The notes under the pieces: model-generated
Told to the model about the DNA's origin: nothing
Database searches by the model: none
Seen by the model: the letters and a program-made list of their open reading frames with translations, nothing else
Shown: positions 14,455 to 55,327 of the stretch, in pieces
How the letters are laid out: each line of letters starts with the position of its first letter
Position numbering within the stretch: the first letter of the stretch is position 1
Translations under genes and position numbers: made by a program
Source of the DNA: an uncultured archaeon
GTDB taxonomy: Archaea; Aenigmatarchaeota; Aenigmatarchaeia; Aenigmatarchaeales; Aenigmatarchaeaceae
Assembly: GCA_964347265.1 (NCBI GenBank)
Contig: CAYFXV010000001.1
Span: forward strand, 14,397 to 78,396
Length of the DNA: 64,000 nucleotides
Direction of reading: 5' to 3'

Positions 14455-14514
14455 TAGAATACTAATCTTTAAATCACTTTTGCTGCCCTCAAGTCAGCGG
14501 TGAAGAACATGAGC

Positions 14515-14541
14515 TGTGCGGAGGGCAGGATTTGAACCTGC
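14515..14541 (-). repeat. 27-nt tRNA 3'-end fragment, copy 2 of the direct repeat.
   Basis: Identical 27-mer TGTGCGGAGGGCAGGATTTGAACCTGC on the + strand. As with copy 1, no 5' half is adjacent. Confidence 0.6.
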
Positions 14542-14601
14542 GAACCCATTACTAGAGCAATACAAATATATTAAAGTACAAAGTATTCTTATTAGAGAAA
14601 A

Positions 14602-39545: not shown

Positions 39546-40514
39546 CTACTTGCCTGAAACTGTTACGCTAGCTGTTCTTTCAACCCAATAACCATAGTCT
39601 GCTGTTACTTTGATCTGATCTGACCTAAATGTTGAAGGTATGGATGTTACAGTTACATCACAAGTTATTGTTGCTTCACCTTTTGTTAATTCAAATGTAT
39701 CGGCACAATCTTCCTCACCACTCCATCCAGGTACATCTGATACATCTATGTCTATCCAGTTTAATTGTGTTTCTGCATCAATTTCATAATCAGTTCCATC
39801 ATAAGCAACTGCACCTTGTAGGTAAACTGTTCCACCACCTACGCTACTAGCTTTTATTTGTAGTGTAAATGTTTGATCACCATCAACAATTACATTTGTT
39901 GGTTTTACTGTCACATATAATGCAACAGGACCTCCTGTTGAAGTGAATGAATTTTGATTTAATGATCTTCCTGCTGCTTTTGCTGCATCAGCTTCTGCCT
40001 CATCATAAATCCATACATTACCTGTAACAGTAGTTGTGTAATCGTAATAAAGTCTTCCTATGAATACATCAGTTCTTGATATTCCTGGATCAATAGCTGT
40101 AGGTGAGGTTAAATACCAGTTTACTGTCTTCTCGTCTGCTGGGACATCTCTAACTGGGTCATACGGATCCATATCCTTTCCCATAGTTTGATGAGTTGTA
40201 GTGGTAGTACCTCTTTCAGTCCAATATAAACCACCGTCTGGTGAGAAGTCACTTCGAAGAGCTGAACCTTGCAACACAGCTAATGCACTACCATCTGGTA
40301 CACTTGAACCACCTTTGTTAATAATTGTCATTGTAATTTTTGCTGAACGGTTGTTATAAACTTCTGTATTATCTATAGAGAATTCTTCTACTACTAAACC
40401 GCCTCCAGCAAAAACTGTAGGTGATGTTATCCATGGTATTGATATTGGTCCGCCCTGAATACACCCTGCTATAAAGATTATAGCCAGCGTAGCTAACAAA
40501 ATCTCTTTTTTCAT
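39546..40514 (-). CDS. Secreted lipoprotein-like protein, paralog A.
   Basis: 322 aa with signal peptide plus lipobox-like LAIIFIAGCIQG. It is a paralog of 40623..41582 and shares ETQLNW, the KAAGR block and overall layout with it. Confidence 0.5.
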   Translation of the reverse strand: MKKEILLATLAIIFIAGCIQGGPISIPWITSPTVFAGGGLVVEEFSIDNTEVYNNRSAKITMTIINKGGSSVPDGSALAVLQGSALRSDFSPDGGLYWTERGTTTTTHQTMGKDMDPYDPVRDVPADEKTVNWYLTSPTAIDPGISRTDVFIGRLYYDYTTTVTGNVWIYDEAEADAAKAAGRSLNQNSFTSTGGPVALYVTVKPTNVIVDGDQTFTLQIKASSVGGGTVYLQGAVAYDGTDYEIDAETQLNWIDIDVSDVPGWSGEEDCADTFELTKGEATITCDVTVTSIPSTFRSDQIKVTADYGYWVERTASVTVSGK

Positions 40515-40622
40515 TTAAAAATCACCTTTTATTTCTATCATAAAATTGTAAGGCGTATATTTATAGATTTAGGTTAGGGAGTTGTACATTGCTTACACTA
40601 CAAAAAATTTGCATTTTAGAAT

Positions 40623-41582
40623 TTATCTTCCTTGAACTGTTACAACTGCTTCTCTTTCTTGGTAATAACCATAGGTCACTAATACATTGAGTAGATATGA
40701 TTTAAAAGTTGATGGTGCTGAAGGTACTTTAGCTTCACAAACTAGTGTCATGGATCTTCCTCCAAAAACTTCCTGATCACCAGTACATTCTGCAACATTT
40801 AAATTTGGAGCATCCACAGCCACATTAAGCCAGTTTAATTGTGTTTCTGCATCTAATGCTAAATCAGAAACTGTTGCACTATCGTAATCTATGTCTTTAT
40901 TAAAAATTGTACCAGTTGCAGTATTAGTTATATCTATGTTAAAAGTAAATTCGGTTTCACCTTCATACAGTATTATTGGATTTGGAGTTAATCTAACATT
41001 TACACCAACTGGTCCTGAAATTGGTGTGAAACTTGATGTTCTCAGGGCTCTTCCTGCTGCTTTTGTTGCTTCTGCTTCCGAATCTGTATAAACCCATATG
41101 TTACCATTCACACCTGATGAATAATCACTGTAAACTCTTAGTATGAATGTGTCTTGTCTTGTTTGACCTGGTGTTATGGTCGGAGAAACCAAACTCCAGC
41201 TAAATCTTTCCATATCAGGTGGAGTGCCTCTTACAACGTTTTCAGGATCCATATCTTTAGAAAAATATCTTATTTCACTTCTATCATCACCTGCATCCCT
41301 ACCATACCAATATTTACCAGTTGTATCATCAAGATCAATATTTGAACCTGTTAAATAAACTAGAGCTGAATCATTTGCAACTGTTGTTCCTCCCCTGTTT
41401 TCAATTTCTCCTACTACTCTTACTGTTCTATTACTATAAACAGGAGTTGGATCTGCTGTAAAACTTATTATTTCTAAACCTATGCCTCCAAGTCCTACTG
41501 TTGGCCCCAATCCTGGTATTTCTCCTATACATCCTGCAACTAAAGCTATTGCTAAAATTGATATTAAAATTTTGGATTTCAT
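40623..41582 (-). CDS. Secreted lipoprotein-like protein, paralog B.
   Basis: 319 aa with signal/lipobox LAIALVAGCIGE. It has the same domain layout as paralog A, including TKAAGRALRTSSF versus AKAAGRSLNQNSF. Confidence 0.5.
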   Translation of the reverse strand: MKSKILISILAIALVAGCIGEIPGLGPTVGLGGIGLEIISFTADPTPVYSNRTVRVVGEIENRGGTTVANDSALVYLTGSNIDLDDTTGKYWYGRDAGDDRSEIRYFSKDMDPENVVRGTPPDMERFSWSLVSPTITPGQTRQDTFILRVYSDYSSGVNGNIWVYTDSEAEATKAAGRALRTSSFTPISGPVGVNVRLTPNPIILYEGETEFTFNIDITNTATGTIFNKDIDYDSATVSDLALDAETQLNWLNVAVDAPNLNVAECTGDQEVFGGRSMTLVCEAKVPSAPSTFKSYLLNVLVTYGYYQEREAVVTVQGR

Positions 41583-41689
41583 ATTTTCACTGATATAAAA
41601 TTGTAAAGTACGTATTTATAGTTAGCGGTCATTATTACACTTTATAAAAACAATGTGGATTAACAAATTAAAAGAATAAATATTCAGTA

Positions 41690-42952
41690 TTATTGTTTTG
41701 CTATAGGTGCATTGTGGATAAGTAAGTCATTTTCACCAAAGTAATTATGAGCTTCAGTCTCTATATTATAAACATAACCTGTATATGCGTTTATTTTATT
41801 TGAAACTAGAGAAACTAAAACTGCTTCTTCATTTAAAGATGGGAATACTTTATGATTCCATGTAAACCAGTTACCATTATAAAAATAAATATCCCAAAAT
41901 CCAAAATGAGATGTTTTTTCTTTAACTTTTGTTTCAACTTTTTTACCATCTTTATATCCTATTACTGTATCACCAACTTTCAAATCTTCAATTCTTTTAA
42001 ATCCTTCAGGCGTTAAAACCTTAAAACCCTCTATTAAACAACCTCCACCGCCTCCAAAAGGTGTGGGAGTTGTAGGTTTTTCTCCTTTTACTGTTATAGG
42101 AATATGGTTGTAAAGAGTGTATTTATAACCAATATCCATATTTAAAGATTTAATACTCATTATGGTTTGTGGAGCAGTGGAAAATTCACAAATTGTTGGA
42201 ACAGCCCTACCTTTTATAAATTTCAAATCTTTATTTAATGTAAAGGTCCCTCCACTCGACGTATAATTGGGACAACTACTTATAATTATATTGTTTGGAG
42301 CAGTGAATTTTATATCTAAATTATCAAAAAAACCATCTCCCCTATTATTATAATTAATATACATATCATATCCTGATAGATCCGCTATAAATGGCTGTGA
42401 TTCAGAAAAAGTTAAATAAACATTTAATGGGCCTTTTGCAAAAGTAGATTGAATAGGAATATCTTGAAGTGTTCCTTCTACTTCTCTTACAACATATTCA
42501 GATTCTGATAAAACTACTATATCTTGAAAAACAGAACTGGTCGCAGAATATGCTACAAAAAACTTTATTATACATCGTCTATCTATCTCTGATTCTTCTG
42601 ATTTCCATCTCCAATGCCACATACAAGTTTGGTTTGCTTTTAATGTTCCAGATGCATCAGTACCACAATCGTCTTTTAGAAATTTATTAGTAGCAACATC
42701 AAAACAAGGATAATCATAAACTATTAAATTAACATTGTTTAAATCATAAAGTTGCTTATTCCTTAATTCAAAAAAAACTTGAACTTCTCTTCCTCCTCTA
42801 ATTTCTGAAGAAGTTGTTTCTGCTTTTATGTAAAGGTCTGGACTTCCTGGATCAATTAAAAAAGTCTCTGGTTGTGGTAGTGATGGAAATGGAGGTAGAA
42901 TCGAACATAAAGAAATCAGAACAATGGGAAGTAATAAAAGTAAATATTTCAT
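41690..42952 (-). CDS. Secreted protein with a C-terminal Hint domain (hedgehog/intein-like, bacterial-intein-like type).
   Basis: 420 aa with a signal peptide. A Gly5 linker is followed by CLIEGFKVLTPEGFKRIEDLKVGDTVIG (intein block A), KTSHFGF (block B, TxxH), YNIETEAHNYFG (block F) and NDLLIHN (block G, terminal HN). Only 6 non-nucleophilic residues (APIAKQ) follow. Confidence 0.7.
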   Translation of the reverse strand: MKYLLLLLPIVLISLCSILPPFPSLPQPETFLIDPGSPDLYIKAETTSSEIRGGREVQVFFELRNKQLYDLNNVNLIVYDYPCFDVATNKFLKDDCGTDASGTLKANQTCMWHWRWKSEESEIDRRCIIKFFVAYSATSSVFQDIVVLSESEYVVREVEGTLQDIPIQSTFAKGPLNVYLTFSESQPFIADLSGYDMYINYNNRGDGFFDNLDIKFTAPNNIIISSCPNYTSSGGTFTLNKDLKFIKGRAVPTICEFSTAPQTIMSIKSLNMDIGYKYTLYNHIPITVKGEKPTTPTPFGGGGGCLIEGFKVLTPEGFKRIEDLKVGDTVIGYKDGKKVETKVKEKTSHFGFWDIYFYNGNWFTWNHKVFPSLNEEAVLVSLVSNKINAYTGYVYNIETEAHNYFGENDLLIHNAPIAKQ

Positions 42953-43881
42953 GGTCTTACCTCAACATCAACATTTCCTATTGTATAATAGTCGTAATCA
43001 ATTGATGCATTTATAAAATATGTTTTTTCTGGACCTGGAGAAATAATAGATGGTGTTGTAATGCCAGAACATCTTATTTCAAGAGATTTTTTATTTATTA
43101 TATAAATATCTTCATCACTCGTACATATTCTGCTTCCAGAATCACAATCAAAAAATGGACAAGTATCAACACCTCCGGTAACAGTGAAACCTTCAGGAAA
43201 TTCTATTTTAAATTTACCGCTAGGAATTTTTCTTAATAATCCAGTCCCTTTATCATGCACCACTAAATAAACTGCTAAAGAAGTACCAGTTTTTGCAGGC
43301 AAACTAGTTCCAAAATCAAAATAAATTTTTATAGGGCCTCTCCCAACATTTACAGTTGGTGTAAAAGTAGTTGTCTTTCCTGCCCTATGTAATTCTTGTA
43401 AGTGTGCTGTTTCAATTACAAGAATATCAATCTCTGATACTGCTGTGTGTTCAAAATCAAATTTAAATTTTATAGGACAAGTTGTTTTTATATTTGCAAT
43501 ATCTTCTGATGAAGGAGCTTGAAAAGTCCATTCAACTAATCTTGTTTCTGTTGGAGAAAGTTTAGTCCAAGCAGGATTACTTGTTGGGGGAATATCAGGA
43601 ACTCCTCCTACAGGTGTACATAAGCCAGTATCATAAATATTATAACCAACTTCTTTAGTATAAATTTCATCTTGGTTTAATAATTCAAAATAAATTGAAA
43701 ACTCATCTTCCGTACGAACAGATGTTGAAGGTAGAACAGTCAAATTGTGTATAGAGATTACATCATGTGGTTTTTCTTTTACTTTAGGACCAGAAGGAGT
43801 AAAAAATGGTATTTCAAATGGTAGACCTACACATCCTGAAAATAATAAAATTAATATTAAACTTAATAACAATTTTTTCAT
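42949..43881 (-). CDS. Lipoprotein-like secreted protein of the envelope cluster.
   Basis: 310 aa. Signal peptide ends in LLFSGCVG (lipobox-like). Its 4-nt overlap with the downstream Hint-protein gene indicates translational coupling. Confidence 0.45.
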   Translation of the reverse strand: MKKLLLSLILILLFSGCVGLPFEIPFFTPSGPKVKEKPHDVISIHNLTVLPSTSVRTEDEFSIYFELLNQDEIYTKEVGYNIYDTGLCTPVGGVPDIPPTSNPAWTKLSPTETRLVEWTFQAPSSEDIANIKTTCPIKFKFDFEHTAVSEIDILVIETAHLQELHRAGKTTTFTPTVNVGRGPIKIYFDFGTSLPAKTGTSLAVYLVVHDKGTGLLRKIPSGKFKIEFPEGFTVTGGVDTCPFFDCDSGSRICTSDEDIYIINKKSLEIRCSGITTPSIISPGPEKTYFINASIDYDYYTIGNVDVEVRP

Positions 43882-43921
43882 TAAATCTCCACTTTATATT
43901 TTATTTTTTAATTTAAAGATT

Positions 43922-46246
43922 TTATTGCGGAGGTGCAATTGCCAATTGTAAGCTTCGTGATTGTGTATTCAAATATCTGTAGTCAGTCAATCCTACTATC
44001 AAACTAGTTTTACTATCAACATCTGCAGGTAAAGCATCGGGTTTTATGAAAAAGGAAACTCTCTTGAATTCTTGAGATTCTATATCTCTACCATGGGTGC
44101 ATGTTATTACATAAAATCCAGAGGGGTTTGTAACTTCGCAACTATCAAAACTGTAATATAAGTCCGAATTAGATAAATTATCAATCAAATTATCAGGAAC
44201 TTTAATTACGAATTTCGCTTGTTTTATTATACCCGTACCTTCATTAAGAAGAGAAGCTATAACAATGTTCGTTTCATCGCTTCTTAATGGCTGTTTCCTA
44301 GAAATTAATGTTGCCTTAACAGGACCTCCAGTATAATAAGATGTCAATTCTTTTATTACTATTTGTTTGTTTTTAAGCAAATCCATGTATAAGCCCGTAT
44401 CCATAACATCAATTGGTATGGATACATTAACTTTATAATTATAAGTCAAATTAGCATTTACTTTAAATAATGTGGTAGCATAAGTATAGGTTGTACCTGG
44501 AACACAAGGAGCTGGATTACCATCTACATCGAGACATTGTCCTCCCAAATCAAGTGTTCCATTAGTCCAAGAATCTTCTTTATAAATAAATGAAGCTACT
44601 TCTATCTCACTTGGATATGTAACATCACTCCAAGTACAAGTGGATCCTGAACCACTACCACGACCACATTCTATTTCAGTAATAGATCCAACATCAGATA
44701 TTTTTGCTGTAACAGGATCTGTCCAAGTTGCATAAATCTCTAATGTTGAAGCTCCGAAAACAGAAGGATCTGATTGATATTCTCCTTTGTTAGTAAGTTC
44801 TATAAAACCTATTGTTGGTTCACTTGGTTCCAAAGTTCCAGGTATAGATGTATAAATATCAAAGCCTGTAAATTCGAGGGATAGTATTGTTCCTGTTGGT
44901 ATGCTTTTTGCTACTTGTATTTTTTGTTGTTGCAATAAATAGTATTGTTGAGGATTAGTCAATAACAACCAACTATCTGATAATCCGCTTTGGGCTTGTG
45001 CTAGAAGAACATTTAATGGGCTCAAATATGTTTCACCAAAACCTTGAACTTGGGGCCACCACACTCCGAATATTGCACTACCAACAAAACCTGTGTATGT
45101 AGTTGAAAATATGAACAATGATATCAAAATTACTATAACTCCAACAGCTGGTCTTGCTTCTGGTCCAGCTGTTGCACCTGAAAACAAGGAAAAAAACCAA
45201 ACAACTGAAAACAATACCACATTCACATCAGAAATATCAAAAGCAAAAGGTCCGAAAGGTTGAAAGAACGTAAAGAGAGCCCCAATCATAACAAGTGAAA
45301 AAATTAATGATTCTGCAGCTCTACCTTTTTTTGAAAGACTTAAATTTATTGTTATTACACCGCCTTCTTCTTCAATATGAGTAGGAATTGCTATAAAAAA
45401 TGCTGCAGACATCAAACCTAATGGCCAACTTAAAGGACCAGCAAAAGTTGAAGAAATTTGAAATGCTAAATAAATACCAAGAACTAATCTTACCCATGCT
45501 AATATAAGCTTATATGGTTGACTAGTCTTGTATCGGAATGGTAAGTTGAAATAAAATATAAATCCAAAAACTAAAGCTAGCATACGGTTCAAAGTAAAAA
45601 AGTCCAATAGTATGAAAAAGAATGCAACTAATTTGGCGAAAGCTTTTACTGTCAAAAAGCCCATAGCTCCACCACTTATCTGTTCCCCTCGTCCGACTTC
45701 ACTGACAATACTACGTTCTGAAGGAAAAACAGAATGAATTGCAATAAAAACAAACCCTATTGCTAAATATGTTCTAGGAGGTATACCAAAGAATGGTGGA
45801 ATAATTATAGAACATGCTGCGGCTATTATATAAATGAGAATTTGAAAAAATTTAAGTTGTGTTCCTTTTCCTGCTATTTCTGCGATAGTTCTAAAGCTAG
45901 GTTTTTTTACTTTAGAAGATGTTGGTCTTCCTTTTGTATAAGCTATGTCCTCTCCTTCCTGAGTCTTTGTTAATGCATGACCTCTCATTTTTTTAAAAAA
46001 ACTAACTAATCCAGTATCTCCCGCTGCTTCTGCTTGTTTTTGCCTTTCCATTGCATAACTTATGTTTGCACCACTATAGGCTTTTCTAACTGCTGTATTA
46101 AAATCTACTCCTTTTGCAGTATACTCATCTATTTTTTGTAACATATACAAATATCTTTGTTTTTTCGCATCTGAAAGATCATCTCTAGAAGCTTGTTTAA
46201 AAATATAATTATATAATTTTTTGTAATCTGTTTTCTTTGTTGCCAT
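43922..46246 (-). CDS. Large polytopic membrane protein: ~130-aa cytoplasmic N-terminus, 8-10 TM helices and a ~380-aa extracytoplasmic C-terminal domain.
   Basis: 774 aa. The hydrophobicity pattern is readable from the sequence, and no known family motif was recognised. The + ORF 43745..43951 overlaps this gene's 3' end and is spurious. Confidence 0.45.
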   Translation of the reverse strand: MATKKTDYKKLYNYIFKQASRDDLSDAKKQRYLYMLQKIDEYTAKGVDFNTAVRKAYSGANISYAMERQKQAEAAGDTGLVSFFKKMRGHALTKTQEGEDIAYTKGRPTSSKVKKPSFRTIAEIAGKGTQLKFFQILIYIIAAACSIIIPPFFGIPPRTYLAIGFVFIAIHSVFPSERSIVSEVGRGEQISGGAMGFLTVKAFAKLVAFFFILLDFFTLNRMLALVFGFIFYFNLPFRYKTSQPYKLILAWVRLVLGIYLAFQISSTFAGPLSWPLGLMSAAFFIAIPTHIEEEGGVITINLSLSKKGRAAESLIFSLVMIGALFTFFQPFGPFAFDISDVNVVLFSVVWFFSLFSGATAGPEARPAVGVIVILISLFIFSTTYTGFVGSAIFGVWWPQVQGFGETYLSPLNVLLAQAQSGLSDSWLLLTNPQQYYLLQQQKIQVAKSIPTGTILSLEFTGFDIYTSIPGTLEPSEPTIGFIELTNKGEYQSDPSVFGASTLEIYATWTDPVTAKISDVGSITEIECGRGSGSGSTCTWSDVTYPSEIEVASFIYKEDSWTNGTLDLGGQCLDVDGNPAPCVPGTTYTYATTLFKVNANLTYNYKVNVSIPIDVMDTGLYMDLLKNKQIVIKELTSYYTGGPVKATLISRKQPLRSDETNIVIASLLNEGTGIIKQAKFVIKVPDNLIDNLSNSDLYYSFDSCEVTNPSGFYVITCTHGRDIESQEFKRVSFFIKPDALPADVDSKTSLIVGLTDYRYLNTQSRSLQLAIAPPQ

Positions 46247-46300
46247 ATTAATCCCAATGCTTTTATCTAAACTAAATATGAGAAATCGTACTTATAATAT

Positions 46301-47086
46301 TTATTCAAAAAACACTATTACCTGAGCAGAAGAAACATCATACCTTGTATTCGGTTCTGTAGAAAATTCAATTGTATTATTTCCAGTTTTAAGAACACTA
46401 GTAGGAAAGTCCTTATAGATTGTTGTTATCCCACTATGAACTTTTACCCTATTTATAATAACATCAAGGTCTCCTATTCCTTCTCTATCAGCATAAACAA
46501 CAATTCTTGCTCTTTCCATATACTCAATCTCTAAATCATTTAATTCAAAATTAAAACTTTTAGTTTTCTTACCATAATAATTAACAATAACATCTGAATC
46601 AAAGATGTAAACAGTTGGAGCCCAAATTTTCCAACCAGAGTTTTCAGCCTTTATTTCTAAAATATTGTTTTTTTCTAAAATGTCTTTATCAAATCCAATT
46701 AGTTTTTCGCCAACAGGGGGATAGTCTGCATAAACTTGTTGTCCATTGACTAAAATTATCAATCTGCCATAATAGTTTGTGTTCCAAACTCTAAGATTTA
46801 TCAAAACTTCAGAAACTTCATCTGGATCTGAAACTTGAAAACCAACTCTTTTCTCTTCATTAACAAATGCGCCATTAGAAACCTCTCCTTTTACATAACC
46901 AACTTTTTCTTCTCCTGTTGTAAAAGAAACTTCAAAATTATAAAATTCTATTGTTCTATCAGCTGGTAAATATCTATAAGGATATGTTCTAGAAGGTCTA
47001 AAAATTAAGCCACCTCCTCCAAAAACTAGCAAAAATACAATTAAACAAATTATTGCTATTACTAAAATCGGTAGGAAGTCTGGCAT
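46301..47086 (-). CDS. N-terminally anchored extracytoplasmic protein, first gene of the envelope cluster.
   Basis: 261 aa. N-terminal TM MPDFLPILVIAIICLIVFLLVFGGGG, then a soluble domain. Confidence 0.45.
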   Translation of the reverse strand: MPDFLPILVIAIICLIVFLLVFGGGGLIFRPSRTYPYRYLPADRTIEFYNFEVSFTTGEEKVGYVKGEVSNGAFVNEEKRVGFQVSDPDEVSEVLINLRVWNTNYYGRLIILVNGQQVYADYPPVGEKLIGFDKDILEKNNILEIKAENSGWKIWAPTVYIFDSDVIVNYYGKKTKSFNFELNDLEIEYMERARIVVYADREGIGDLDVIINRVKVHSGITTIYKDFPTSVLKTGNNTIEFSTEPNTRYDVSSAQVIVFFE

Positions 47087-47123: not shown

Positions 47124-48140
47124 ATGCGCTCACGTTTTGATTTAAAGCACAACATAGGGAAAATAACTCCTCATTCAAAAGAGGATTTATACATATTAAA
47201 AGAAGTTATAACTCCTGGAAATTTTATTACTGCAAAGTCTCCAAGAAGTGTTAAAATAAGAAGAGAAGGAGAACTAATAAGAGCTAAAACAGGAAGAAAG
47301 GAATCAATAATGAAAATACTTGTTGAAAAAATTGAATTAAAAGATAAATTAAGACTAACTGGAAAGATTTTAGAAGCTCCTGAAAGAGTGGAGAGAGGTT
47401 ATCACACAATTGAAATCGAGCCTAACAAATTTTTAAAAATAGAAAAAGAATGGAAATCTTGGGAAATTGATAGAATTAAATCTGCTGAAAGAAGACCTGA
47501 ACCAGTTTTAGTATGTATATTAGATGAAAATGAAGCTGATTTTTATTTTTTAAAAGAAAGATACAAACATTTGTTTAATTTAGTTTCTAAAGCAACTGGA
47601 AAAAGATTTGATTCAAAAAAAGCTGAAAAAGAAAGAAAAGAATATTATGTTAATATTTTAAATGAATTGAAAAAAAGATCTAAAAATGTTAAAAAAATTG
47701 TAATAGCTGGCCCTGGATTTGCAAGAGATGATTTGCAAAAACTAATGAAACAAAGGGGAAAAGAATTGTTAGAAAAATTAATGATGGAATTTACTTATCA
47801 AACAGGAAATTTAGGTTTGCAAGAATTGTTAAAAAAGGGTTTAATAGAAAAAATAACTAAATACAGTAGAATTTCTCAAGAAACAAAAGCTGTTGAAAAA
47901 TTATTAGAAGAAATAAATAAAAATGGGAAAGCTGTTTATGGTTTGGAAAATACTAGAGAAGCTTTGGAAAATGGAACTGTTGATTTTCTTTTAGTTTCTG
48001 ATATTAAATTAAGAGAATTTGAAGAATTGTTAGATTTGGCAGACAAAATAAAATGTAAAATAATGATAATAGCTTCTGAACATGCTGCTGGAGAAAGACT
48101 GGTTGGATTAGGTGGAATAGCAGGATTGCTAAAATTCTGA
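47124..48140 (+). CDS. pelA: Protein Pelota (Dom34 homolog; mRNA surveillance/ribosome rescue).
   Basis: 338 aa, with Pelota-typical size and eRF1-like domain features (..IAGPGFARDDL.., C-terminal GERLVGLGGIAGLLKF). Confidence 0.75.
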   Translation: MRSRFDLKHNIGKITPHSKEDLYILKEVITPGNFITAKSPRSVKIRREGELIRAKTGRKESIMKILVEKIELKDKLRLTGKILEAPERVERGYHTIEIEPNKFLKIEKEWKSWEIDRIKSAERRPEPVLVCILDENEADFYFLKERYKHLFNLVSKATGKRFDSKKAEKERKEYYVNILNELKKRSKNVKKIVIAGPGFARDDLQKLMKQRGKELLEKLMMEFTYQTGNLGLQELLKKGLIEKITKYSRISQETKAVEKLLEEINKNGKAVYGLENTREALENGTVDFLLVSDIKLREFEELLDLADKIKCKIMIIASEHAAGERLVGLGGIAGLLKF

Positions 48141-48415: not shown

Positions 48416-49171
48416 ATGATTGACAAACTTTTAAGAGCTTATTTAATTGAGAAAAAACCTTGGTATGGAATTGTATTAGGTTTTCTTTTTGCAAGCTTAG
48501 GAATAATATTTGCTTTTCTTATTTTTAGAACAGAACCATCATTTCCTGCAGTTTTTTTAACAACTTTAGCAGCAGCACCTTTAATTGTTAAATTAATAAA
48601 AAGTGAAAGACAAAAAGAAAACATATTAAGAAGACATGAAAATATTATTGGAGTTTATTTTTATTTGTTCTTTGGAATGACCATTGCATTTGCTTTATTT
48701 AATGCTTTTTTACCAACTGAAATTTCTAGTTCTATTTTTAGTGAACAGCTAAACAAATTTTCTGCAGGTTATTTTACAGGACAATCTCAACTATTTTTTG
48801 AAATAATTTTAAATAATCTTGGCTTAGTTTTATTCTTTTTCATATTATCTTTGTTTTATGGTTCTGGTTCAATGTTTCTTTTATCTTGGAACTCGTCCAT
48901 ACTTGGAGTAATGTGGGGCAATATATTGAAGATTTCACTTTCTTTAATGGATCCACTTGTTTTTGTTCAAAATGTTTTTTTCATATTTCCTTTCTTATTA
49001 CCTGAAGTTGAGGCTTATTTCTTAGCTTCAATAGCTGGTGGTATAGTTTCTGTAAACTTGGATAATAAGAAAAAATTAGAAACTGCAATGAATGATTCTT
49101 TGATGTTTTTAGTATTATCTATAGTGTTGATAATAATTGCTGGTGGTATAGAAACTATTTTGATTGCATAA
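48416..49171 (+). CDS. Polytopic membrane protein (SpoIIM/DUF95-like).
   Basis: 251 aa with six or more TM helices. Confidence 0.35.
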   Translation: MIDKLLRAYLIEKKPWYGIVLGFLFASLGIIFAFLIFRTEPSFPAVFLTTLAAAPLIVKLIKSERQKENILRRHENIIGVYFYLFFGMTIAFALFNAFLPTEISSSIFSEQLNKFSAGYFTGQSQLFFEIILNNLGLVLFFFILSLFYGSGSMFLLSWNSSILGVMWGNILKISLSLMDPLVFVQNVFFIFPFLLPEVEAYFLASIAGGIVSVNLDNKKKLETAMNDSLMFLVLSIVLIIIAGGIETILIA

Positions 49172-50501
49172 ATTTATGTCAGAATTATTAATTATGATTA
49201 TGAAAAAATGGATTTTTTTATTATTCTCATTAACGTTTGTTTTTGTTACAATAAATTTGACAAGGGTTGAAGCTATAACAAACCCTACCCCTGATCCTGA
49301 ATGTGATAGAAAAGAACCAGGAGAAAGCTTAAATGACGGAATTTGTAATTTAACTTGTCAATATATCGAATGCAATCCTGATGGAACTAGTGATTATGAA
49401 GTTAAGGTATTCAGGGAAGATTTCGATTATCTTGATAGCGATATATGGGCTTTTGAAGGAGTTGGACCCTTAGTTGAAAGTGGGAATTTAGTTGTGCACG
49501 TACTAGCATGGCAAACAAATTATGATACAAAGATTTTCACTGGAGAAAAATTTGGAAAAGCAATTTATGAGTTTAAAATTAAAATGACTGAAAAAGTTCA
49601 AGATGTTGCATCATTCTTTTTCTTGTATGAAGGACAAGAAACTGGATGTAAACCAGATTCGTATCCATTTTGTCAGGAAATAGATGTTGAATTTTTCGGT
49701 TACGTTCCCGAAGGATCAAACCCAAGAATAGATGATAGAAATTCAATTGTTTTTGCAAGTAGAAATTCTACTGGTCATTGGAGTTGGCATATAGTATCAG
49801 CTCCAAGCAACTTGGACGATGAGAATTGGCATTTATTCAGATTAGAATATAGAACAGATTCGATAGTACTTACAGTTGATGATTCAGTAATTGGAACTAT
49901 TACAGATATCATTCCGGATAAAAATATGCACATATATTTTGGGGCATATGGAAGTACCCATGAAAATTCGTATACCATGTATGTCGCTTATGTTGAAGTA
50001 TTTAAATTATTTAATGTATGTAAATTAGAATGTGGTGCTGATTCTGAGTGTGATGAAATAATACCAGGGTGTAGTGGTTGTAATGATACTTGCCGATATT
50101 GCTCTGGTGACGTAGATGGTGACGGTGATGTTGATTATAATGATTTCATTATTCTTGCAGGGGCTTATGGCTCGAGCAGCGGTCAACCAGCCTATGATGT
50201 GTGTGCAGACTTTGATAAAGACGGTGATGTTGACTATGATGATTTCATGGTTCTTGCAGGAAACTATGGGAAGAGTTGTCTAGGATCTACAGGAACGTTT
50301 ACAGGTCCTTCTAGAATAACAGAGAGCATGATGAAGAAATTAGAAAAAGAGAAAAAACCAAAAGCATACTTTACATTGCCTTATTTGTTAGAAGTTGTGA
50401 TTCCGTTTGTTAGTTTTGTAATTATAGCCTTGATTGAGATTTTTGTTTTAGGATTGATAATTAGAAAATTGCATGAGATGTATCCTAAGAAAAAGAAATA
50501 A
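49164..50501 (+). CDS. Secreted GH16-family glycoside hydrolase (beta-glucanase/laminarinase-like) with a dockerin-like module and a C-terminal TM anchor.
   Basis: 445 aa with a signal peptide. The GH16 catalytic motif is QEIDVEF (E-x-D-x-x-E). It has two Ca-binding dockerin-like repeats, DVDGDGDVDYNDFIILAGAYG and DFDKDGDVDYDDFMVLAGNYG, and a terminal hydrophobic helix followed by KKKK. Confidence 0.65.
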   Translation: MHKFMSELLIMIMKKWIFLLFSLTFVFVTINLTRVEAITNPTPDPECDRKEPGESLNDGICNLTCQYIECNPDGTSDYEVKVFREDFDYLDSDIWAFEGVGPLVESGNLVVHVLAWQTNYDTKIFTGEKFGKAIYEFKIKMTEKVQDVASFFFLYEGQETGCKPDSYPFCQEIDVEFFGYVPEGSNPRIDDRNSIVFASRNSTGHWSWHIVSAPSNLDDENWHLFRLEYRTDSIVLTVDDSVIGTITDIIPDKNMHIYFGAYGSTHENSYTMYVAYVEVFKLFNVCKLECGADSECDEIIPGCSGCNDTCRYCSGDVDGDGDVDYNDFIILAGAYGSSSGQPAYDVCADFDKDGDVDYDDFMVLAGNYGKSCLGSTGTFTGPSRITESMMKKLEKEKKPKAYFTLPYLLEVVIPFVSFVIIALIEIFVLGLIIRKLHEMYPKKKK

Positions 50502-50503
50502 TT

Positions 50504-51355
50504 CTATGCAATTGTTATTGTTGAATTTGTTGAATGAATTGTAGTATTACTAATACCTGTTGTTGTTATTGTAAAATCACCAATTAGTGTAGCCATTGCA
50601 ATTTGAATATTTAATACAGAAGTTGCAAAACCTTCAGAAGGAACATTAACAGGACTTATTGAATATGAACATATAGAACCAATAGGACAACCTGAAAGAG
50701 ATAAATGAACTAAACCTGAAAACCTATTGATTGAGCTTACATTAATTACAAATGAGGCTTTTTGAGCAACAACTTTAGTATAATTAGGTATTGACTCTAT
50801 AGAAAAGTCTTTTATGCAAGAACTATTATAAGCGCATCTAGATTCTATATCGCAGTTTGATGGTTCACATGTTCTAACCATATACATTTGAGAAGTACAA
50901 GGTCCTCCACAACCTTTATTAATCCACCTTGTACAAAGACATTCTTTAGGTTTAACAGTTAAATAATAAGTTGATGTTTTTTTAATACCAAAACTAGATG
51001 CAAAAATGTTTATTGGATAAGTTCCTTCAGGTGTTGATTCTGATGGTATAATTGTTAATTCAGAAGTATAAGTTGGTGTAGCATTATTTACTGATAAAAA
51101 ACATGCAGTATGTTTTGGACAATTTGAAATATATATTTCAACTTCTCTAGAATCTTCAGAATCAGAAAATACTATGACTGTAGATGTTATAGATTTTTCT
51201 TGACTTATTGTTCCTTCTTTTGGCTCTATGTAAATATTAAAATCAAATGGTTGAGGAAAAATATAAAACATAAAATCAAGAAAAAACCATCCAATGAAAA
51301 ATATTGTAAATACGATTAAGAGGGATATTATTTGTAAAAATGATTTCTTTTTCAT
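50504..51355 (-). CDS. Cys-rich secreted or membrane-anchored hypothetical protein.
   Basis: 283 aa with an N-terminal TM and clustered cysteines (CLCTRWINKGCGGPCTSQ...CEPSNCDIESRC). Confidence 0.4.
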   Translation of the reverse strand: MKKKSFLQIISLLIVFTIFFIGWFFLDFMFYIFPQPFDFNIYIEPKEGTISQEKSITSTVIVFSDSEDSREVEIYISNCPKHTACFLSVNNATPTYTSELTIIPSESTPEGTYPINIFASSFGIKKTSTYYLTVKPKECLCTRWINKGCGGPCTSQMYMVRTCEPSNCDIESRCAYNSSCIKDFSIESIPNYTKVVAQKASFVINVSSINRFSGLVHLSLSGCPIGSICSYSISPVNVPSEGFATSVLNIQIAMATLIGDFTITTTGISNTTIHSTNSTITIA

Positions 51356-51385
51356 AAATAATTTTTAGAATAATTAGATAATAAA

Positions 51386-51458
51386 TGGACCCGTCGGGAC
51401 TTGAACCCGAAACCTCCACCATGCCAAGGTGGCGATCTACCAATTGATCTACAGGCCC
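51386..51458 (-). tRNA. tRNA-Ala (anticodon GGC).
   Basis: Reverse-complement fold: acceptor GGGCCTG/CGGGTCC with a G3:U70 identity pair, anticodon loop TTGGCAT, T-loop TTCAAGT. Confidence 0.8.
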
Positions 51459-51466
51459 AAAAATAA

Positions 51467-51539
51467 TGGGCCAGGGGAGATTCGAACTCCCGACCTCCAC
51501 GGTGTAAGCGTGGCGTCATAACCACTAGACCACCGGCCC
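51467..51539 (-). tRNA. tRNA-Val (anticodon TAC).
   Basis: Reverse-complement fold: acceptor GGGCCGG/CTGGCCC, anticodon stem CCACG/CGTGG with loop CTTACAC, T-loop TTCGAAT. Confidence 0.8.
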
Positions 51540-51587: not shown

Positions 51588-52151
51588 ATGTTTATGAGAC
51601 TTTCAAGAAAATTTTACTCAAGAAACACAAAAACAGTTGCAAAAGAATTGTTAGGAAAAATCTTAGTTCATAAAAAATGTAAAGGAAAGATAGTTGAAAC
51701 TGAAGCTTATTTTGGAAAGTATGATCCTGCTTCTCATGCCTATTGTAAAATTACAAAAAGAAATATAATAATGTACCAGAAACCCGGAACTGCTTATGTT
51801 TATTTTACTTATGGAAATCATTGGATGTTTAATGTTGTTACAGAGAAAAAAGGTATACCTGGAGCTGTTTTAATAAGAGCTGTAGAACCATTAAATGGAA
51901 TTGAAATAATGAAAAGAAGAAGAAAAATAAATAATATTAAAAATCTTACAAATGGTCCTGGTAAATTAACTAAAGCTTTTAGTATTAATAAAAAACATAA
52001 TTGTCTAGACTTAACAAAAAGTAATTTGTTTATAGAAAATTCTAATGAAAAGTTTAAAATTGTTAAAACAACTAGAATTGGTCTTTCTAAAGGTCAGGAA
52101 AAATTATTAAGATTTTATATAAAAGATAATGGATTTGTTTCTAAAAAATAA
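51588..52151 (+). CDS. DNA-3-methyladenine glycosylase (MPG/AAG family).
   Basis: 187 aa. ETEAYFGKYDPASHAY...GTAYVYFTYGNHWMFNVV...GAVLIRAVEP matches the MPG family. Confidence 0.8.
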   Translation: MFMRLSRKFYSRNTKTVAKELLGKILVHKKCKGKIVETEAYFGKYDPASHAYCKITKRNIIMYQKPGTAYVYFTYGNHWMFNVVTEKKGIPGAVLIRAVEPLNGIEIMKRRRKINNIKNLTNGPGKLTKAFSINKKHNCLDLTKSNLFIENSNEKFKIVKTTRIGLSKGQEKLLRFYIKDNGFVSKK

Positions 52152-52155: not shown

Positions 52156-52269
52156 TGGGCGAGGTGAGATTTGAACTCACGACCTCCAGTATTTACAGAA
52201 CGCAGCCACAAAAAATGACTAACGTCATTTTATAAGACTGGCGCTCTAACCAAACTAAGCTACCCGCCC
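52156..52269 (-). tRNA. Intron-containing tRNA. The anticodon is TAT (tRNA-Ile) if the intron is at the canonical 37/38 position.
   Basis: Reverse complement: acceptor GGGCGGG/CTCGCCC, D-arm GCTT..GAGC, anticodon stem CCAGT/ACTGG enclosing CTTATA plus a ~39-nt insert (with hairpin ATGAC-GTTA-GTCAT), T-arm GTGAG-TTCAAAT-CTCAC. Confidence 0.65.
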
Positions 52270-53611: not shown

Positions 53612-55327
53612 ATGACTAATGGACAAGCTCAATTAGGAGGCCAACCAATATTAGTCCTACCTGAAGGAACCTTAAGAACTTTAGGTAAAGGAGCTCAAAG
53701 AACTAATATAGCAGCAGCAAAAGCTGTTGCAGACGCAGTAAGAACAACTTTAGGACCAAAAGGAATGGACAAGATGTTAGTTGATAATCTAGGAGATATT
53801 GTAATAACAAATGATGGTGTAACAATTTTAGAAGAAATGCAAATAGAACATCCTGCTGCAAAAATGTTAGTAGAAGTTGCAAAAACACAAAACGAAGAAG
53901 TTGGAGACGGGACAACAACTGCAGCTGTTTTAGCAGGAGAATTACTAAAAAAAGCAGAAGATCTCTTAGAACAGAACATACACTCAACAGTTATTACAAG
54001 GGGTTATAAGATTGCAAGAGAAAAGGCATTAGAAATTCTTGATAAAATTTCTGAAAAAATAGAGCTAGAAGACACAGAAGATTTAGTAAAAATAGCAATA
54101 ACGTCAATGACAGGAAAAAGTGCAGAAATGGCATCAGAACACTTAGCAAGAGTTGTTGTAGAAGCAGTTAGAACTGTTATGGAAGACAAAGAAATTGATA
54201 AAGAAAACATTAAACTTGAAAAAAAGCAGGGAGGTTCAGCAGAAGATACAGAACTAATAAAAGGTGTAATAATTGACAAAGAAGTTGTTCACCCTGGAAT
54301 GGCTAAAAAAGTAAAATATGCAAAAATTGCTTTGTTAGATTCTTCGTTAGAAATTGAGAAGACAGAAACTGATGCACAAATACGAATAACATCACCAGAC
54401 CAGTTACAAAGTTTTCTAGATCAAGAAGAAAAAATACTAAAAGACATGGTTAACAAGGTTGCTTTGTCAGGATGTAGTGTATTATTCTGTCAAAAAGGAA
54501 TAGATGATGTAGCTCAGCATTATCTTGCTAAAAAAGGTATTTTAACAGCTAGAAGAATCAAGAAATCTGATATGGAAAAATTAGCAAGAGCAACAGGAGG
54601 AAAAATAGTTTCAAACATCTCAGATTTAAGTGAAGACGATTTAGGAGAAGCAGGCATTGTTGAAGAAAAGAAAATTTCTGGAGAAGAAATGATATTTGTC
54701 AGAGATTGTAAGAATCCAAAAGCAGTTTCAATATTAATCAGAGGTGGAACAGAACATGTTGTTGCTGAGGTTGAAAGAGCAATTGAAGATGCTATAGGAG
54801 CAACTAGCTCAGCCTTAGAAGTTGGTAAAATAGTTGCTGGTGGAGGAGCACCAGAAGAAGTTGTTGCAAGAGAATTAAGAGAATTTGCTCAAAGATATTC
54901 AGGAAGAGAACAACTAGCAATTAAAGCTTTTGCAGATGCAATGGAAATAATACCAAAGACGTTAGCAGAAAACGCAGGTCTAGACCCACTAGATATGTTA
55001 ACCGAACTAAGATCAGCACAAGAAGGCGATAGGAAAGAACATTATGAAGGACGTGAAATAAAAAAAACAGTTAAATTACATGATACTAAAACATATGACT
55101 TAAAAAAAGAACATTATGGAATAGATGTGTACACAGGAAAAATAGTTGATATGAAAGCAAAAGGTGTTATTGAACCATTGAAAATAAAAACACAAGCAAT
55201 AAAATCTGCTGCAGAAGCTGCAGAAATGATACTAAGAATAGATGATATAATATCTGCAGGAAAATTAGAAAAAGGTGGAGCACCACCAATGCCTCCAGGC
55301 GGACCAGGAATGGGAGGAATGTACTAA
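53612..55327 (+). CDS. ths: Thermosome subunit (group II chaperonin).
   Basis: 571 aa. [36 protein letters not shown] and the C-terminal GGMGGM-like tail are all present. Internal minus ORFs are spurious. Confidence 0.95.

Follow-up and report, generated by a model that had tools for sequence, protein, structure and literature searches.

Gene and protein architecture

Within a 64 kb stretch of DNA (hereafter the window; 30 % GC), which was examined out of a ∼0.9 Mb, 72 %-complete MAG, an ORF was found at 49164..50501 on the + strand, comprising 445 aa in the ORF list when counted from a TTG codon. The encoded protein is identical to NIM46683.1 (433 aa), which is named 'family 16 glycosylhydrolase' by NCBI and derives from the Candidatus (Ca.) Aenigmarchaeota MAG CS4-C008 from Gulf of Cambay marine sediment, and the same protein is present as a 441 aa gene call on contig WVZI01000016.1 of GCA_011772535.1. 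The ORF, which encodes a GH16 domain, a dockerin and a membrane anchor, is real; its likely start is either the ATG at 49200 (433 aa beginning MKKW..., which is the form of NIM46683.1) or that at 49176 (441 aa), whilst the TTG at 49164 (445 aa) is probably not used. Residue numbers throughout refer to the 445 aa frame. From the N- to the C-terminus we distinguish a signal peptide, a Cys-rich segment, a predicted, very divergent GH16 jelly-roll, a Cys-rich linker, a dockerin, a K/E linker, a TM helix and a KKKK tail, as follows:

49200..50501, + strand: coding sequence of the GH16–dockerin–anchor protein, 433 aa (ORF list; identity to NIM46683.1)
49200..49274, + strand: predicted Sec-type signal peptide MKKWIFLLFSLTFVFVTINLTRVEA, aa 13–37 (read from the sequence)
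49302..49373, + strand: N-terminal Cys-rich segment, Cys 47, 61, 65 and 70 (cysteine positions)
49386..50018, + strand: predicted, divergent GH16-type β-jelly-roll (ConA-like) domain, ∼aa 75–285
49677..49691, + strand: catalytic strand E172-I-D174-V-E176 (ExDxE; aligned to lichenase 3i4i and to 3axd)
50019..50102, + strand: Cys-rich linker CKLECGADSECDEIIPGCSGCNDTCRYC, 7 Cys (sequence)
50103..50279, + strand: dockerin module, aa 314–372 (phmmer against the PDB, Pfam, homologues)
50109..50171, + strand: dockerin repeat 1 DVDGDGDVDYNDFIILAGAYG, aa 316–336
50208..50270, + strand: dockerin repeat 2 DFDKDGDVDYDDFMVLAGNYG, aa 349–369
50316..50372, + strand: Lys/Glu-rich juxtamembrane linker ITESMMKKLEKEKKPKAYF (identical in the paralogue-like P0002)
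50382..50462, + strand: C-terminal TM helix YLLEVVIPFVSFVIIALIEIFVLGLII, 27 residues, aa 407–433 (hydropathy, conservation)
50463..50498, + strand: predicted basic cytoplasmic tail RKLHEMYPKKKK, end of the protein, positive-inside stop-transfer (sequence)
50499..50501, + strand: stop codon

All of the elements quoted in a first-pass annotation of the window (QEIDVEF, both dockerin segments, the terminal helix and the KKKK tail) are present. The signal peptide is probably cleaved after VEA, and the sister protein P0052 begins likewise, with MKKW and a hydrophobic stretch. The N-terminal Cys-rich segment may form a disulfide-stabilised cap or spacer. With regard to the second such region, a similar Cys-rich stretch lies upstream of the dockerin in a polysaccharide-lyase protein encoded on locus L001.

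Genomic context and origin

The gene is interior to contigs of 92–198 kb, was recovered in 2–3 assemblies and is flanked by archaeal genes of 29–31 % GC (Pelota, thermosome, tRNAs); elsewhere in the window, synteny with the sister MAG CS1-C013 holds. Its own GC content is 30–33 %, with a GC3 of 0.16–0.31 (0.31 for the dockerin), compared with 47–53 % GC for Bathyarchaeia loci, and its nucleotide identity to Bathyarchaeia dockerins is 74–76 %. Judging from this composition and setting, the gene is native to the Aenigmarchaeota genome, and the DPANN-like cell suggested in the first pass is borne out by the identical protein in a Ca. Aenigmarchaeota MAG. Each of these observations speaks against the gene, or its dockerin, having been mis-binned or chimerically joined from a Bathyarchaeia or bacterial genome, an explanation that draws on the estimated contamination of the MAG (7.5 %; PMC8319310) and on the Bathyarchaeia-type best matches of the dockerin, but that we regard as largely refuted and extremely improbable. 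A recent HGT or chimerism of the dockerin was likewise rejected, given its GC and GC3 close to those of the host gene and the above level of nucleotide identity; the module may have been acquired by an ancient transfer.

The GH16 domain is a distant but recognizable family member

The Pfam comparison proposed in the first-pass annotation placed the domain above the gathering score of Glyco_hydro_16 (PF00722), although marginally so, by 1.3 bits (23.3 vs 22 bits; E = 4.9e-5), with aa 128–270 spanning model positions 38–166 of 175. When a profile built from the GH16 domain and its sole remote homologue, P0067 (27 % identical), was compared with the PDB, more than 10 solved GH16 enzymes were returned (E-values from 4e-6 to 1e-3) and the catalytic strand was in register, EIDVE pairing with EIDIE of lichenase 3i4i and with EVDIE of 3axd; in P0067 the motif is kept as EADVE. 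The match to the GH16 family, like that to the dockerin family described below, is beyond chance, and the Pfam and PDB profile matches together with the catalytic strand uphold the GH16-type, ConA-like domain initially proposed. Both catalytic Glu residues, E172 and E176, whose presence in the alignment had also been put forward as a check, were found along with the Asp; E172 probably serves as nucleophile, D174 as helper and E176 as acid/base. The motif class originally given, ExDxxE, is however wrong, as the strand reads ExDxE. Within GH16, ExDxE denotes the regular β-strand class (lichenase/XTH/Crh) and ExDxxE the β-bulge class (PMC6827312).

A phmmer search of 1.84 billion representative proteins with the GH16 domain gave five matches at E ≤ 1e-3. 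Searched with a profile at E ≤ 10, 5.8 billion proteins yielded P0067 and no further GH16-domain homologues, and none of the other genomes searched had an orthologue of the gene. GH16_21 lichenases (3i4i, 1gbg, 3o5s) share the predicted jelly-roll and the ExDxE strand (EIDIEF vs EIDVEF here), and can be aligned in three blocks (DKFGYGLY, SSFFTY and FHIY..W.P..I.W.VDG vs EKFGKAIY, SFFFLY and WHLF..Y....I.L.VDD here), whereas overall identity is 12–20 % and an extra loop, CKPDSYPF, precedes the catalytic strand in our protein. Of the aromatic residues with which lichenase-subfamily members bind their substrate (in 1GBG Phe-92, Tyr-94, Trp-103 as well as Trp-192; PMC6827312), the Phe and Tyr aligning to SSFFTY are retained, Cys170 is aligned at Trp-103 and the Trp-192 region is unalignable, the 1GBG numbering having been mapped by ourselves; a CAZy subfamily is not assignable here. 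Furthermore, the listed bacterial lichenases are single secreted domains, whilst the present protein adds Cys-rich linkers, a dockerin and a TM anchor. AlphaFold2 gave a pLDDT of 41 for the full protein as a single sequence and of 55 on a two-sequence alignment (<50 for the catalytic strand), and hence the active-site geometry rests on the sequence alignment and the model was used solely for fold-level searches. As the domain is so divergent, its substrate specificity cannot be read from the sequence; the substrate would be some β-linked glycan.

It is conceivable that the ConA-like domain merely binds glycans as a non-catalytic lectin or adhesin, with the dockerin as a Ca2+-stabilised stalk that has no cohesin partner. 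The marginal GH16 score, the loss of the Trp-103 equivalent, weak Pfam matches to Laminin_G and legume lectins at aa 204–269, and the presence in the window of a further ConA-like surface protein, pilin-like at its N-terminus (16072–17124), are all consistent with such a role. However, the three catalytic carboxylates stand in exact ExDxE spacing, also in P0067, the Phe and Tyr of the SSFFTY block are kept, and GH16 enzymes ranked above lectins in every search (profile against the PDB as well as fold-level). As such, we consider a purely binding function unlikely.

The dockerin module

Dockerins were defined by two ∼22-residue EF-hand-like loops, D-x-[DN]-x-D-G-x-x-[DN]-x-x-D, each followed by a helix. 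The protein contains two 21-residue repeats 33 residues apart, DVDGDGDVDYND-FIILAGAYG (aa 316–336) and DFDKDGDVDYDD-FMVLAGNYG (aa 349–369), each made up of a Ca-binding loop D-x-D-x-D-G-D-x-D-x-x-D and a helix F-x-x-L-A-G-x-Y-G, and every acidic Ca-ligand position is present in both. In phmmer searches of the PDB, aa 314–372 matched 2y3n_B, a cellulosomal Cel48 dockerin (E = 6.4e-8), and the dockerins 4wi0_B and 4u3s_B were matched at ∼1e-3. Whilst the repeats and the 2y3n_B match confirm the two-repeat, Ca-binding dockerin of the first-pass annotation, its suggested check against Pfam had a mixed outcome: Dockerin_1 (PF00404) did match, but at 21.1 bits, just under the GA cutoff of 22.9. Among 5.8 billion proteins the dockerin matched ∼60, many of which have a precomputed PF00404 match, mostly over 57 aa at 70–86 % identity; a second dockerin was not found in the 64 kb window.

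In comparison with P0002, a redoxin described below, the dockerin has a dN/dS of ∼0.14, which, together with the retention of all Ca-ligand positions, argues for a conserved, specific dockerin function and thereby against the stalk of the lectin explanation. From its sequence, the module should bind Ca2+ and cohesin. It is internal, lying beneath the enzyme domain and ∼35 residues from the membrane, and a position this close to the membrane is unusual for a module that reaches for a partner.

The membrane anchor and its reuse on other proteins

The C-terminal hydropathy of the GH16 protein is the highest among window ORFs of at least 150 aa, and no other C-terminal anchor of similar kind was found among the window proteins. 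The hydrophobic helix and KKKK stop-transfer noted in the first pass are both present, the former at aa 407–433 and the latter in the 12-residue tail. The helix is near-identical in P0002 and P0052; compared with P0002, the anchor has a dN of 0.078 and a dS of 0.40 (dN/dS ∼0.19), and we regard it as being under selection. An archaeosortase/exosortase sorting signal (PGF-CTERM, PEF-CTERM) was considered and rejected, the C-terminal 73 aa giving no NCBIfam match at E ≤ 10. In such CTERM signals a short motif and a TM helix come together with a basic tail of very few residues; the segment is treated here as a conserved, predicted TM anchor and not as a sortase signal.

Parts of this C-terminal cassette recur on other proteins, all of them low-GC. 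P0002 has an AhpC/redoxin (TlpA-like) N-terminus and matches aa 313–445 at 77 % identity, so that the dockerin, K/E linker and TM helix are all found on this redoxin. Downstream of it on L001, a gene encodes a PF14099 polysaccharide lyase followed by a Cys linker and a dockerin, on a contig that ends ahead of any anchor. Finally, P0052, from the sister MAG CS1-C013, has the same TM anchor with only a degenerate dockerin, and its enzyme part shows weak GH53/'Glyco_hydro_cc' matches (GH-A-like). The recurrence of cassette parts on a redoxin, a lyase and a GH-A-like hydrolase points to a module by which extracytoplasmic enzymes in general are displayed at the surface, and which probably serves the scavenging of sediment polysaccharides. 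A candidate P0052 remnant at the syntenic slot (13.9–14.6 kb) was also considered and discarded, as tblastn matched the GH16 gene's own anchor alone.

Neighbouring genes and envelope polysaccharides

Attack on a host wall and remodelling of a self-made glucan, as put forward in the first-pass annotation, are both speculation. For the remodelling of a glucan made by the GT2 at 24.9 kb, we found no support beyond co-occurrence in the window, and a functional link between the two genes was rejected. More broadly, the anchored ExDxE GH16 could cut and re-join a self-made polysaccharide, with the product of this GT2 (24875–26116) as one example. ExDxE-type GH16s include the XTH and Crh transglycosylases (PMC6827312). 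Moreover, the GT2 is of the QxxRW processive type (QRIRW motif), and a gene for a SpoIIM-family membrane protein lies 4–28 nt upstream of the GH16 gene. SpoIIM scaffolds wall hydrolases in Bacillus. The layout of our protein is also paralleled by the fungal Crh/Utr2 proteins (6ibu), which have an N-terminal signal peptide, an ExDxE GH16 domain and a C-terminal membrane tether, although their tether is a GPI anchor and not a TM helix, the dockerin is absent, and their chitin/glucan wall substrate has no known counterpart in Aenigmarchaeota.

In disagreement with a remodelling role, however, the GT2 gene is 23 kb from the GH16 gene with many unrelated genes between them, and it is closest to PgaC/IcaA, its best match being a β-1,6-GlcNAc synthase at 190 bits, far under the equivalog cutoff of 422 bits. 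To our knowledge, no polysaccharide wall has been described for Aenigmarchaeota, which we count against this role, and the lack of an orthologue of the GH16 gene in the genomes searched would be odd for envelope housekeeping. In addition, the presence of the cassette on a lyase and a GH-A-like enzyme fits catabolism better, and we therefore hold envelope remodelling to be quite unlikely.

Cohesins and a possible link to Bathyarchaeia

The search for a cohesin partner that the first-pass annotation had recommended was negative in the 64 kb window, whose six-frame translation was scanned with a family HMM, and on the low-GC relative loci L001, L002, L004 and L005. A convergent 283 aa neighbour was considered as a hidden cohesin and rejected (hhalign probability 0.5 %, no PDB relative). 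Matching cohesins were located at 58 metagenome and two Bathyarchaeia genome loci, all of 41–58 % GC and none low-GC; nine come from the same Gulf assemblies. The scans used a pair of peptides conserved in the Bathyarchaeia-type family and would thus miss divergent cohesins. The most 'low-GC-like' member by composition, P0073, has 47 % GC; amino acid composition as a proxy for GC gave a weak trend and was replaced by the direct GC of the 58 loci. The failure to find a cohesin in the window, on the low-GC loci or among scanned cohesin loci of low GC would also suit the lectin explanation.

A dockerin of the same type and a cohesin on one protein were seen solely in surface proteins that share sediments with the Aenigmarchaeota; this cohesin-plus-dockerin family has 189 members, which are Bathyarchaeia wherever named. 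The best dockerin match, P0003 (86 % identity), comes from GCA_012975005.1, a pooled assembly that the same Gulf of Cambay project produced, and a Bathyarchaeia MAG from this study (ERP108616) encodes P0065. These ∼265 aa proteins resemble ours in dockerin type (identity over 57 aa reaches 86 %; 70–86 % for Bathyarchaeia-type dockerins as a whole) and in their origin from the same Gulf sediments, but differ in combining a cohesin with a hydrophobic anchor or signal at the N-terminus, with no enzyme domain, and in being encoded at 41–58 % GC in clusters with other cohesin/dockerin genes. The three low-GC dockerins are 74–86 % identical to P0003 and 67–75 % among themselves, each being as close or closer to P0003, and at the helix positions usually in contact with cohesin, residues are either unchanged or conservatively replaced (YDDF[IM][IV]LAG).

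One explanation of this pattern is docking between species, in which the dockerin would plug into Bathyarchaeia surface cohesins and attach the DPANN cell with its enzymes to a host or partner, the GH16 and the lyase then acting on the partner's surface glycans or on a shared substrate. In its favour are the sequence relationships and the GC range of the cohesin loci given above, the negative cohesin search of the window, the Bathyarchaeia origin of the best dockerin match and of the two named cohesin loci within one sediment project, the report that Bathyarchaeota are notable among the HGT donors of Aenigmarchaeota (PMC8407114), and the role in cell–cell interaction proposed for cohesin–dockerin systems of ANME archaea (PMC9012536). 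Nevertheless, shared presence in a single sediment project is a weak argument, and the 57-residue similarity may reflect a constrained consensus or an old module transfer. As the MAG is 72 % complete and 64 kb of it were scanned, it may encode its own cohesin, which could belong to another type and diverge from the two peptides, and a membrane-adjacent dockerin under the enzyme domain would have an awkward reach to another cell. It therefore seems improbable to us that this DPANN archaeon, which shows neighbour-type dockerins without an apparent matching cohesin, docks to those of Bathyarchaeia.

Comparison with cellulosomal and archaeal systems

Cellulosomal GH16 enzymes, amongst them the Clostridium thermocellum lichenase LicB, which we take to carry a C-terminal dockerin, resemble our protein in combining GH16 with a two-repeat, type-I-like dockerin, and the dockerin aligns end to end with 2y3n_B. 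They differ in the C-terminal placement of that module; here it lies inside the chain with a TM anchor behind it, which already fixes the enzyme to the membrane, and the organism is a DPANN archaeon. A classical cellulosome is not what we see, in that there is no cohesin or scaffoldin in the window and the dockerin is not a free C-terminal module. The non-cellulosomal modules of archaea (Archaeoglobus fulgidus, ANME; Peer et al., 2009; PMC9012536) are similar in that dockerins are found on varied, non-cellulolytic surface proteins, and these archaea lack classical multi-cohesin scaffoldins, a cell–cell role having been proposed (PMC9012536). Unlike in those systems, a redoxin and carbohydrate-active enzymes carry the dockerins described here, which are linked to a conserved TM anchor and belong to a lineage in whose low-GC loci no cohesin was found.

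Proposed function and implications

The explanation that we favour, and consider fairly probable, is that of a type I membrane-anchored ecto-enzyme of Ca. Aenigmarchaeota (DPANN) with a dockerin between enzyme and membrane. The N-terminal part would be exported by means of the Sec signal peptide and the protein retained in the membrane by its C-terminal helix and KKKK tail. Outermost would be the highly divergent GH16 jelly-roll with its intact ExDxE strand, which by family membership is most likely a retaining endo-β-glycanase or transglycosylase acting by double displacement, and the two-repeat, Ca2+-binding dockerin would tie the enzyme to a cohesin-bearing surface complex.

Within its family the GH16 domain stands as an extreme outlier, and a new GH16 subfamily could be defined by the substrate it acts on. 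The gene bears on two questions, namely the hosts and attachment of Aenigmarchaeota and the function of archaeal cohesin–dockerin pairs, which has been asked since 1999. If the docking explanation were true, a cohesin–dockerin bridge between two species would constitute an attachment device of an episymbiont, carrying the GH16, the polysaccharide lyase, the GH-A-like enzyme and the TlpA-like redoxin along with it. On the more conservative reading, an archaeon with a reduced genome devotes resources to a cassette of enzyme, dockerin and TM anchor that can be reused to display carbohydrate-active enzymes, which bears on how DPANN cells get their sugars.

Identity and genomic setting of the GH16 gene

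In the six-frame ORF list, a 445-aa ORF runs from a TTG at exactly 49164..50501 (+), and all of the strings quoted from it in the first-pass annotation were found there. The architecture proposed at that stage was right: the QEIDVEF motif (E172/D174/E176, nt 49677-49691), two dockerin repeats (aa 316-336 and aa 349-369) and a terminal hydrophobic helix of 27 residues (aa 407-433) are all present, with the tail RKLHEMYPKKKK as the protein's final residues. The TTG is probably not the start codon used, as public gene calls, otherwise identical to the window protein, begin at ATG 49176 (441 aa) or ATG 49200 (433 aa); the latter form (NIM46683.1) opens with a textbook signal peptide, MKKWIFLLFSLTFVFVTINLTRVEA. 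Contig WVZI01000016.1 encodes the 441-aa form; it belongs to GCA_011772535.1, a MAG recorded as 'Ca. Aenigmarchaeota archaeon CS4-C008' (0.91 Mb, 31.5 % GC, 72 % complete, 7.5 % contamination) from deep Gulf of Cambay sediments (PMC8319310). The GH16 assignment itself is already in the public annotation of the gene product.

Features around the GH16 gene (window coordinates)
47124-48140, Pelota/eRF1-like gene (archaeal housekeeping)
48416-49171 (+), SpoIIM-family polytopic membrane protein gene (PF01944, 43.5 bits)
50504-51355 (-), gene for a 283-aa protein, convergent with the GH16 gene, 2 nt between its end and the GH16 stop
51385-51539, tRNA-Ala and tRNA-Val
51588-52151, methylpurine DNA glycosylase gene (archaeal housekeeping)
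52156-52269 (-), Rfam tRNA match over 114 nt (59.9 bits)
53612-55327, thermosome gene (archaeal housekeeping)

Given the identity to the CS4-C008 protein and the archaeal housekeeping genes flanking the locus, the earlier guess of a DPANN-like cell was correct. The window has a GC content of 30 % throughout, and mis-binning of the GH16 gene is largely excluded by GC, the size of the contigs and synteny. The SpoIIM-family gene stops 4-28 nt upstream of the GH16 start, and this short gap makes co-transcription of the two probable; in Bacillus, SpoIIM is a scaffold for cell-wall hydrolases. The convergent 283-aa neighbour has an N-terminal TM segment and two similar beta-rich halves with a Cys-rich insert between them; neither Pfam nor PDB holds a relative, the one NCBIfam match ('lipo-invert tail') is weak, and the protein was ruled out as a cohesin (hhalign probability 0.5 %). 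Within 52156-52269 (-), where ARAGORN reported no tRNA, the Rfam match probably represents an intron-containing archaeal tRNA.

Other surface genes were seen in the window. A run of seven in the same direction (39546-47086, -), with no Pfam family above threshold, looks like a lineage-specific cell-surface gene cluster; it includes two paralogous lipobox (AGC) proteins of 322 and 319 aa, a third lipobox protein of 310 aa, a 774-aa polytopic membrane protein with a beta-rich extracellular C-terminus and a 261-aa protein anchored N-terminally. At 41690-42952 (-), a 420-aa secreted protein ends in GGGGGC-LIEGFKVLTPEG...LLIHN, a C-terminus that scores 25.7 bits against the intein/Hint splicing domain PF14890 (under the GA of 35.8), and may be a Hint-type self-processing surface protein of a DPANN archaeon. 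A 350-aa protein with a pilin-like N-terminus (16072-17124, -; weak UpsA and TafC matches) has an orthologue with a Laminin_G_3 ConA-like domain at 8989-10056 of L005, a locus of the sister MAG CS1-C013, and may be a lectin-tipped type IV pilin or adhesin.

The GH16 domain

Residues 128-270 match Pfam Glyco_hydro_16 with 23.3 bits (gathering score 22; E = 4.9e-5), and weaker Laminin_G and lectin matches overlap the same ConA-like region. The domain is a near-orphan, with phmmer finding only five proteins at E ≤ 1e-3 among 1.84 billion representatives. Beyond the window protein itself, P0067, a remote homologue with 27 % identity, alone covers most of the domain; the other matches are two Laminin_G_3 proteins and one with weak, sub-threshold Pfam matches only. 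P0067 scores 34.5 bits against PF00722 and has in common with the window protein the motifs E-x-D-V-E-F-x-G and W-H-x-x-x-L-x-Y-x-x-D-x-I-V-L-x-V-D. When the two-sequence profile was compared with all PDB sequences, GH16 enzymes ranked first, headed by BoGH16MLG (7kr6/5nbo; 4e-6 and 7.5e-6) and followed by the lichenases 3i4i, 3axd, 3wvj, 3o5s, 1zm1, 1mve and 1gbg. The alignments pair EIDVEF with EIDIEF, SFFFLY with SSFFTY and WHLF...IVLTVDD with FHIY...IAWLVDG (window protein and lichenase, respectively). At the level of sequence profile and catalytic motif we accept the domain as a GH16 member with a putative active site, and it is unlikely that the ConA-like domain is a non-catalytic lectin on a Ca-stabilised stalk.

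The motif had initially been classed as E-x-D-x-x-E, which is wrong: it reads E-x-D-x-E and has the regular beta-strand form. Within GH16, that form sets the lichenases, XTH/EG16 and Crh transglycosylases apart from a branch with the beta-bulge E-x-D-x-x-E motif, to which laminarinase, agarase and carrageenase belong (PMC6827312). Of the lichenase aromatics (PMC6827312; residue numbers mapped in the present analysis), the Phe and Tyr aligned with SSFFTY are kept, but Cys170 stands at the Trp-103 position, with the extra loop CKPDSYPF before it. The label 'beta-1,3/1,4-glucanase-type' is therefore fair for the scaffold, whereas the substrate is not callable.

The dockerin and candidate matching cohesins

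The dockerin module (aa 314-372) can be aligned from end to end with 2y3n_B, a cellulosomal dockerin of solved structure (E = 6.4e-8); the scaffoldin dockerins 4wi0_B and 4u3s_B align as well. The acidic Ca-ligand positions are all kept in both repeats, followed by an F-x-x-L-A-G-x-Y-G helix; Pfam Dockerin_1 scores 21.1 bits, just under its 22.9 cutoff. At the nucleotide level the repeats are 90 % identical over 41 nt (window 50121-50161 versus 50220-50260), which suggests recent intragenic duplication or gene conversion. In a collection of 5.8 billion proteins there are ∼60 matches, nearly all via the dockerin alone and mostly at 70-86 % identity over its 57 residues, a length with little phylogenetic resolution. 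The matching dockerins form the C-terminal module of various surface proteins, NosD/beta-helix and CARDB proteins among them, and likewise of a family of ∼265-aa proteins carrying a cohesin (PF00963).

This cohesin-plus-dockerin family comprises 189 proteins at E ≤ 0.01, and all members with names are from Bathyarchaeia or Bathyarchaeota. One of them, P0003, has the dockerin closest to ours (86 % identity); its contig is in GCA_012975005.1, a pooled assembly produced by the Gulf of Cambay project to which the Aenigmarchaeota MAG also belongs. P0065, its 90 %-cluster mate, belongs to the Bathyarchaeia MAG ERP108616_co2_244 of the same study and lies in the following cluster:

L003 1791-12246 (Bathyarchaeia MAG, CAYFXU010000007.1), cohesin-like and dockerin-bearing genes

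The cluster also includes P0016 (cohesin-like plus dockerin), a Peripla_BP_6 substrate-binding protein with a C-terminal dockerin and a CARDB-dockerin protein. L003 is a non-cellulosomal cohesin-dockerin network in Bathyarchaeia, of which we found no description in the literature searched.

With a family HMM trained on the cohesin regions of the ∼265-aa proteins, we detected no cohesin in the six-frame translation of the 64-kb window or on the other low-GC loci examined; such scans hinge on two peptides conserved in the Bathyarchaeia-type family, and their genome coverage is 64 kb of a 72 %-complete MAG. The cohesin profile recovered 58 loci from the metagenome collection, all of 41-58 % GC, including nine from the Gulf pooled assemblies (43-58 % GC), and the most 'low-GC-looking' family member was on a contig of 47 % GC. 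The three low-GC dockerins are 67-75 % identical among themselves and 74-86 % identical to P0003. By the results from the window, the low-GC loci and the metagenome scan, matching-type cohesins thus appear plentiful in the co-resident Bathyarchaeia, with none visible in the Aenigmarchaeota lineage. Inter-species docking, in which the dockerin would plug onto Bathyarchaeia cohesins as a cross-species bridge, has similarity, co-occurrence and this cohesin absence as its sole basis, and we consider it improbable.

A shared dockerin and anchor cassette

The protein P0002, whose N-terminus is an AhpC/TSA-redoxin domain (TlpA-like, CxxC), is 77 % identical to aa 313-445 of the GH16 protein, spanning dockerin, K/E linker, TM helix and basic tail. 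Its contigs (5.6-6.5 kb, 33-34 % GC) are part of the pooled assemblies made in the same sediment project, and the gene after it, incomplete at the contig end, encodes a PF14099 polysaccharide lyase (52.6 bits) with a Cys-rich linker and the same dockerin. P0052, from the sister Aenigmarchaeota MAG CS1-C013, combines weak GH53 and 'Glyco_hydro_cc' matches with the remnant of a degenerate dockerin, and its TM helix is the same (PYLLEVVIPFVSFVII...RKLHE). The unit is complete on the GH16 and redoxin proteins, and was observed in part on the lyase (dockerin) and the GH-A-like P0052 (anchor). None of the NCBIfam CTERM sorting-signal models match the GH16 protein's tail, and no other protein of the 64-kb window has the anchor segment. 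We read the dockerin-linker-TM unit as a putative lineage-specific surface-display cassette. Compared with P0002, dN and dS, from small counts, are 0.15 and 1.09 for the dockerin and 0.078 and 0.40 for the TM-plus-tail; by these values both are under purifying selection, and the difference in dS hints at a mosaic cassette, such that dockerin and anchor may have different histories.

P0052 is inserted between FBPase and aldehyde dehydrogenase genes (L005 6001-7443), and the syntenic slot of the window (13871-14601, ∼730 nt) has no remnant of it; surface-enzyme content therefore differs between the sister genomes.

Comparison with known systems and predicted function

In the cellulosomes of Firmicutes, GH16 with a dockerin is a classical pairing. 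Archaeal non-cellulosomal cohesins and dockerins are known, although functionally unresolved (PMC9012536 and references therein), and another Aenigmarchaeota MAG is reported to encode a GH16 (PMC8407114). In full-text literature searches combining dockerin with DPANN or Aenigmarchaeota, no account of DPANN enzymes with dockerins came up. In contrast to known systems, the present dockerin has an internal position and is joined to a conserved TM anchor, one cassette is found on several extracytoplasmic enzymes within a single DPANN lineage, and matching cohesins are seen solely in another phylum of the same habitat.

Domain order, the conserved catalytic triad, complete Ca-binding loops, cassette reuse and the low-GC native context are direct observations, and the ordinary reading is that of a surface-anchored CAZyme with an existing GH16 annotation. 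The protein would be exported via Sec with type I topology and perform retaining endo-glycanase or transglycosylase chemistry, with E172 as nucleophile and E176 as acid/base, whilst the dockerin would bind a cohesin in a Ca-dependent manner. In a rival reading, the enzyme would be a Crh-like envelope transglycosylase linked to a QxxRW glycosyltransferase:

24875-26116 (+), GT2 with D,D,D and QRIRW motifs and C-terminal TM helices

These features point to a processive beta-glycan synthase type. However, the GT2 lies 23 kb from the GH16 gene, and its closest NCBIfam model, the PgaC/IcaA poly-beta-1,6-GlcNAc synthase (next CelA and NodC), gives 190 bits, well under the cutoff of 422; we regard the Crh-like alternative as quite unlikely. 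As the sister cassette proteins are a lyase and a GH-A-like protein, the balance tilts towards catabolic glycan scavenging over envelope remodelling, and the surface-anchored enzyme would serve this archaeon in the harvest of sediment polysaccharides at the cell surface.
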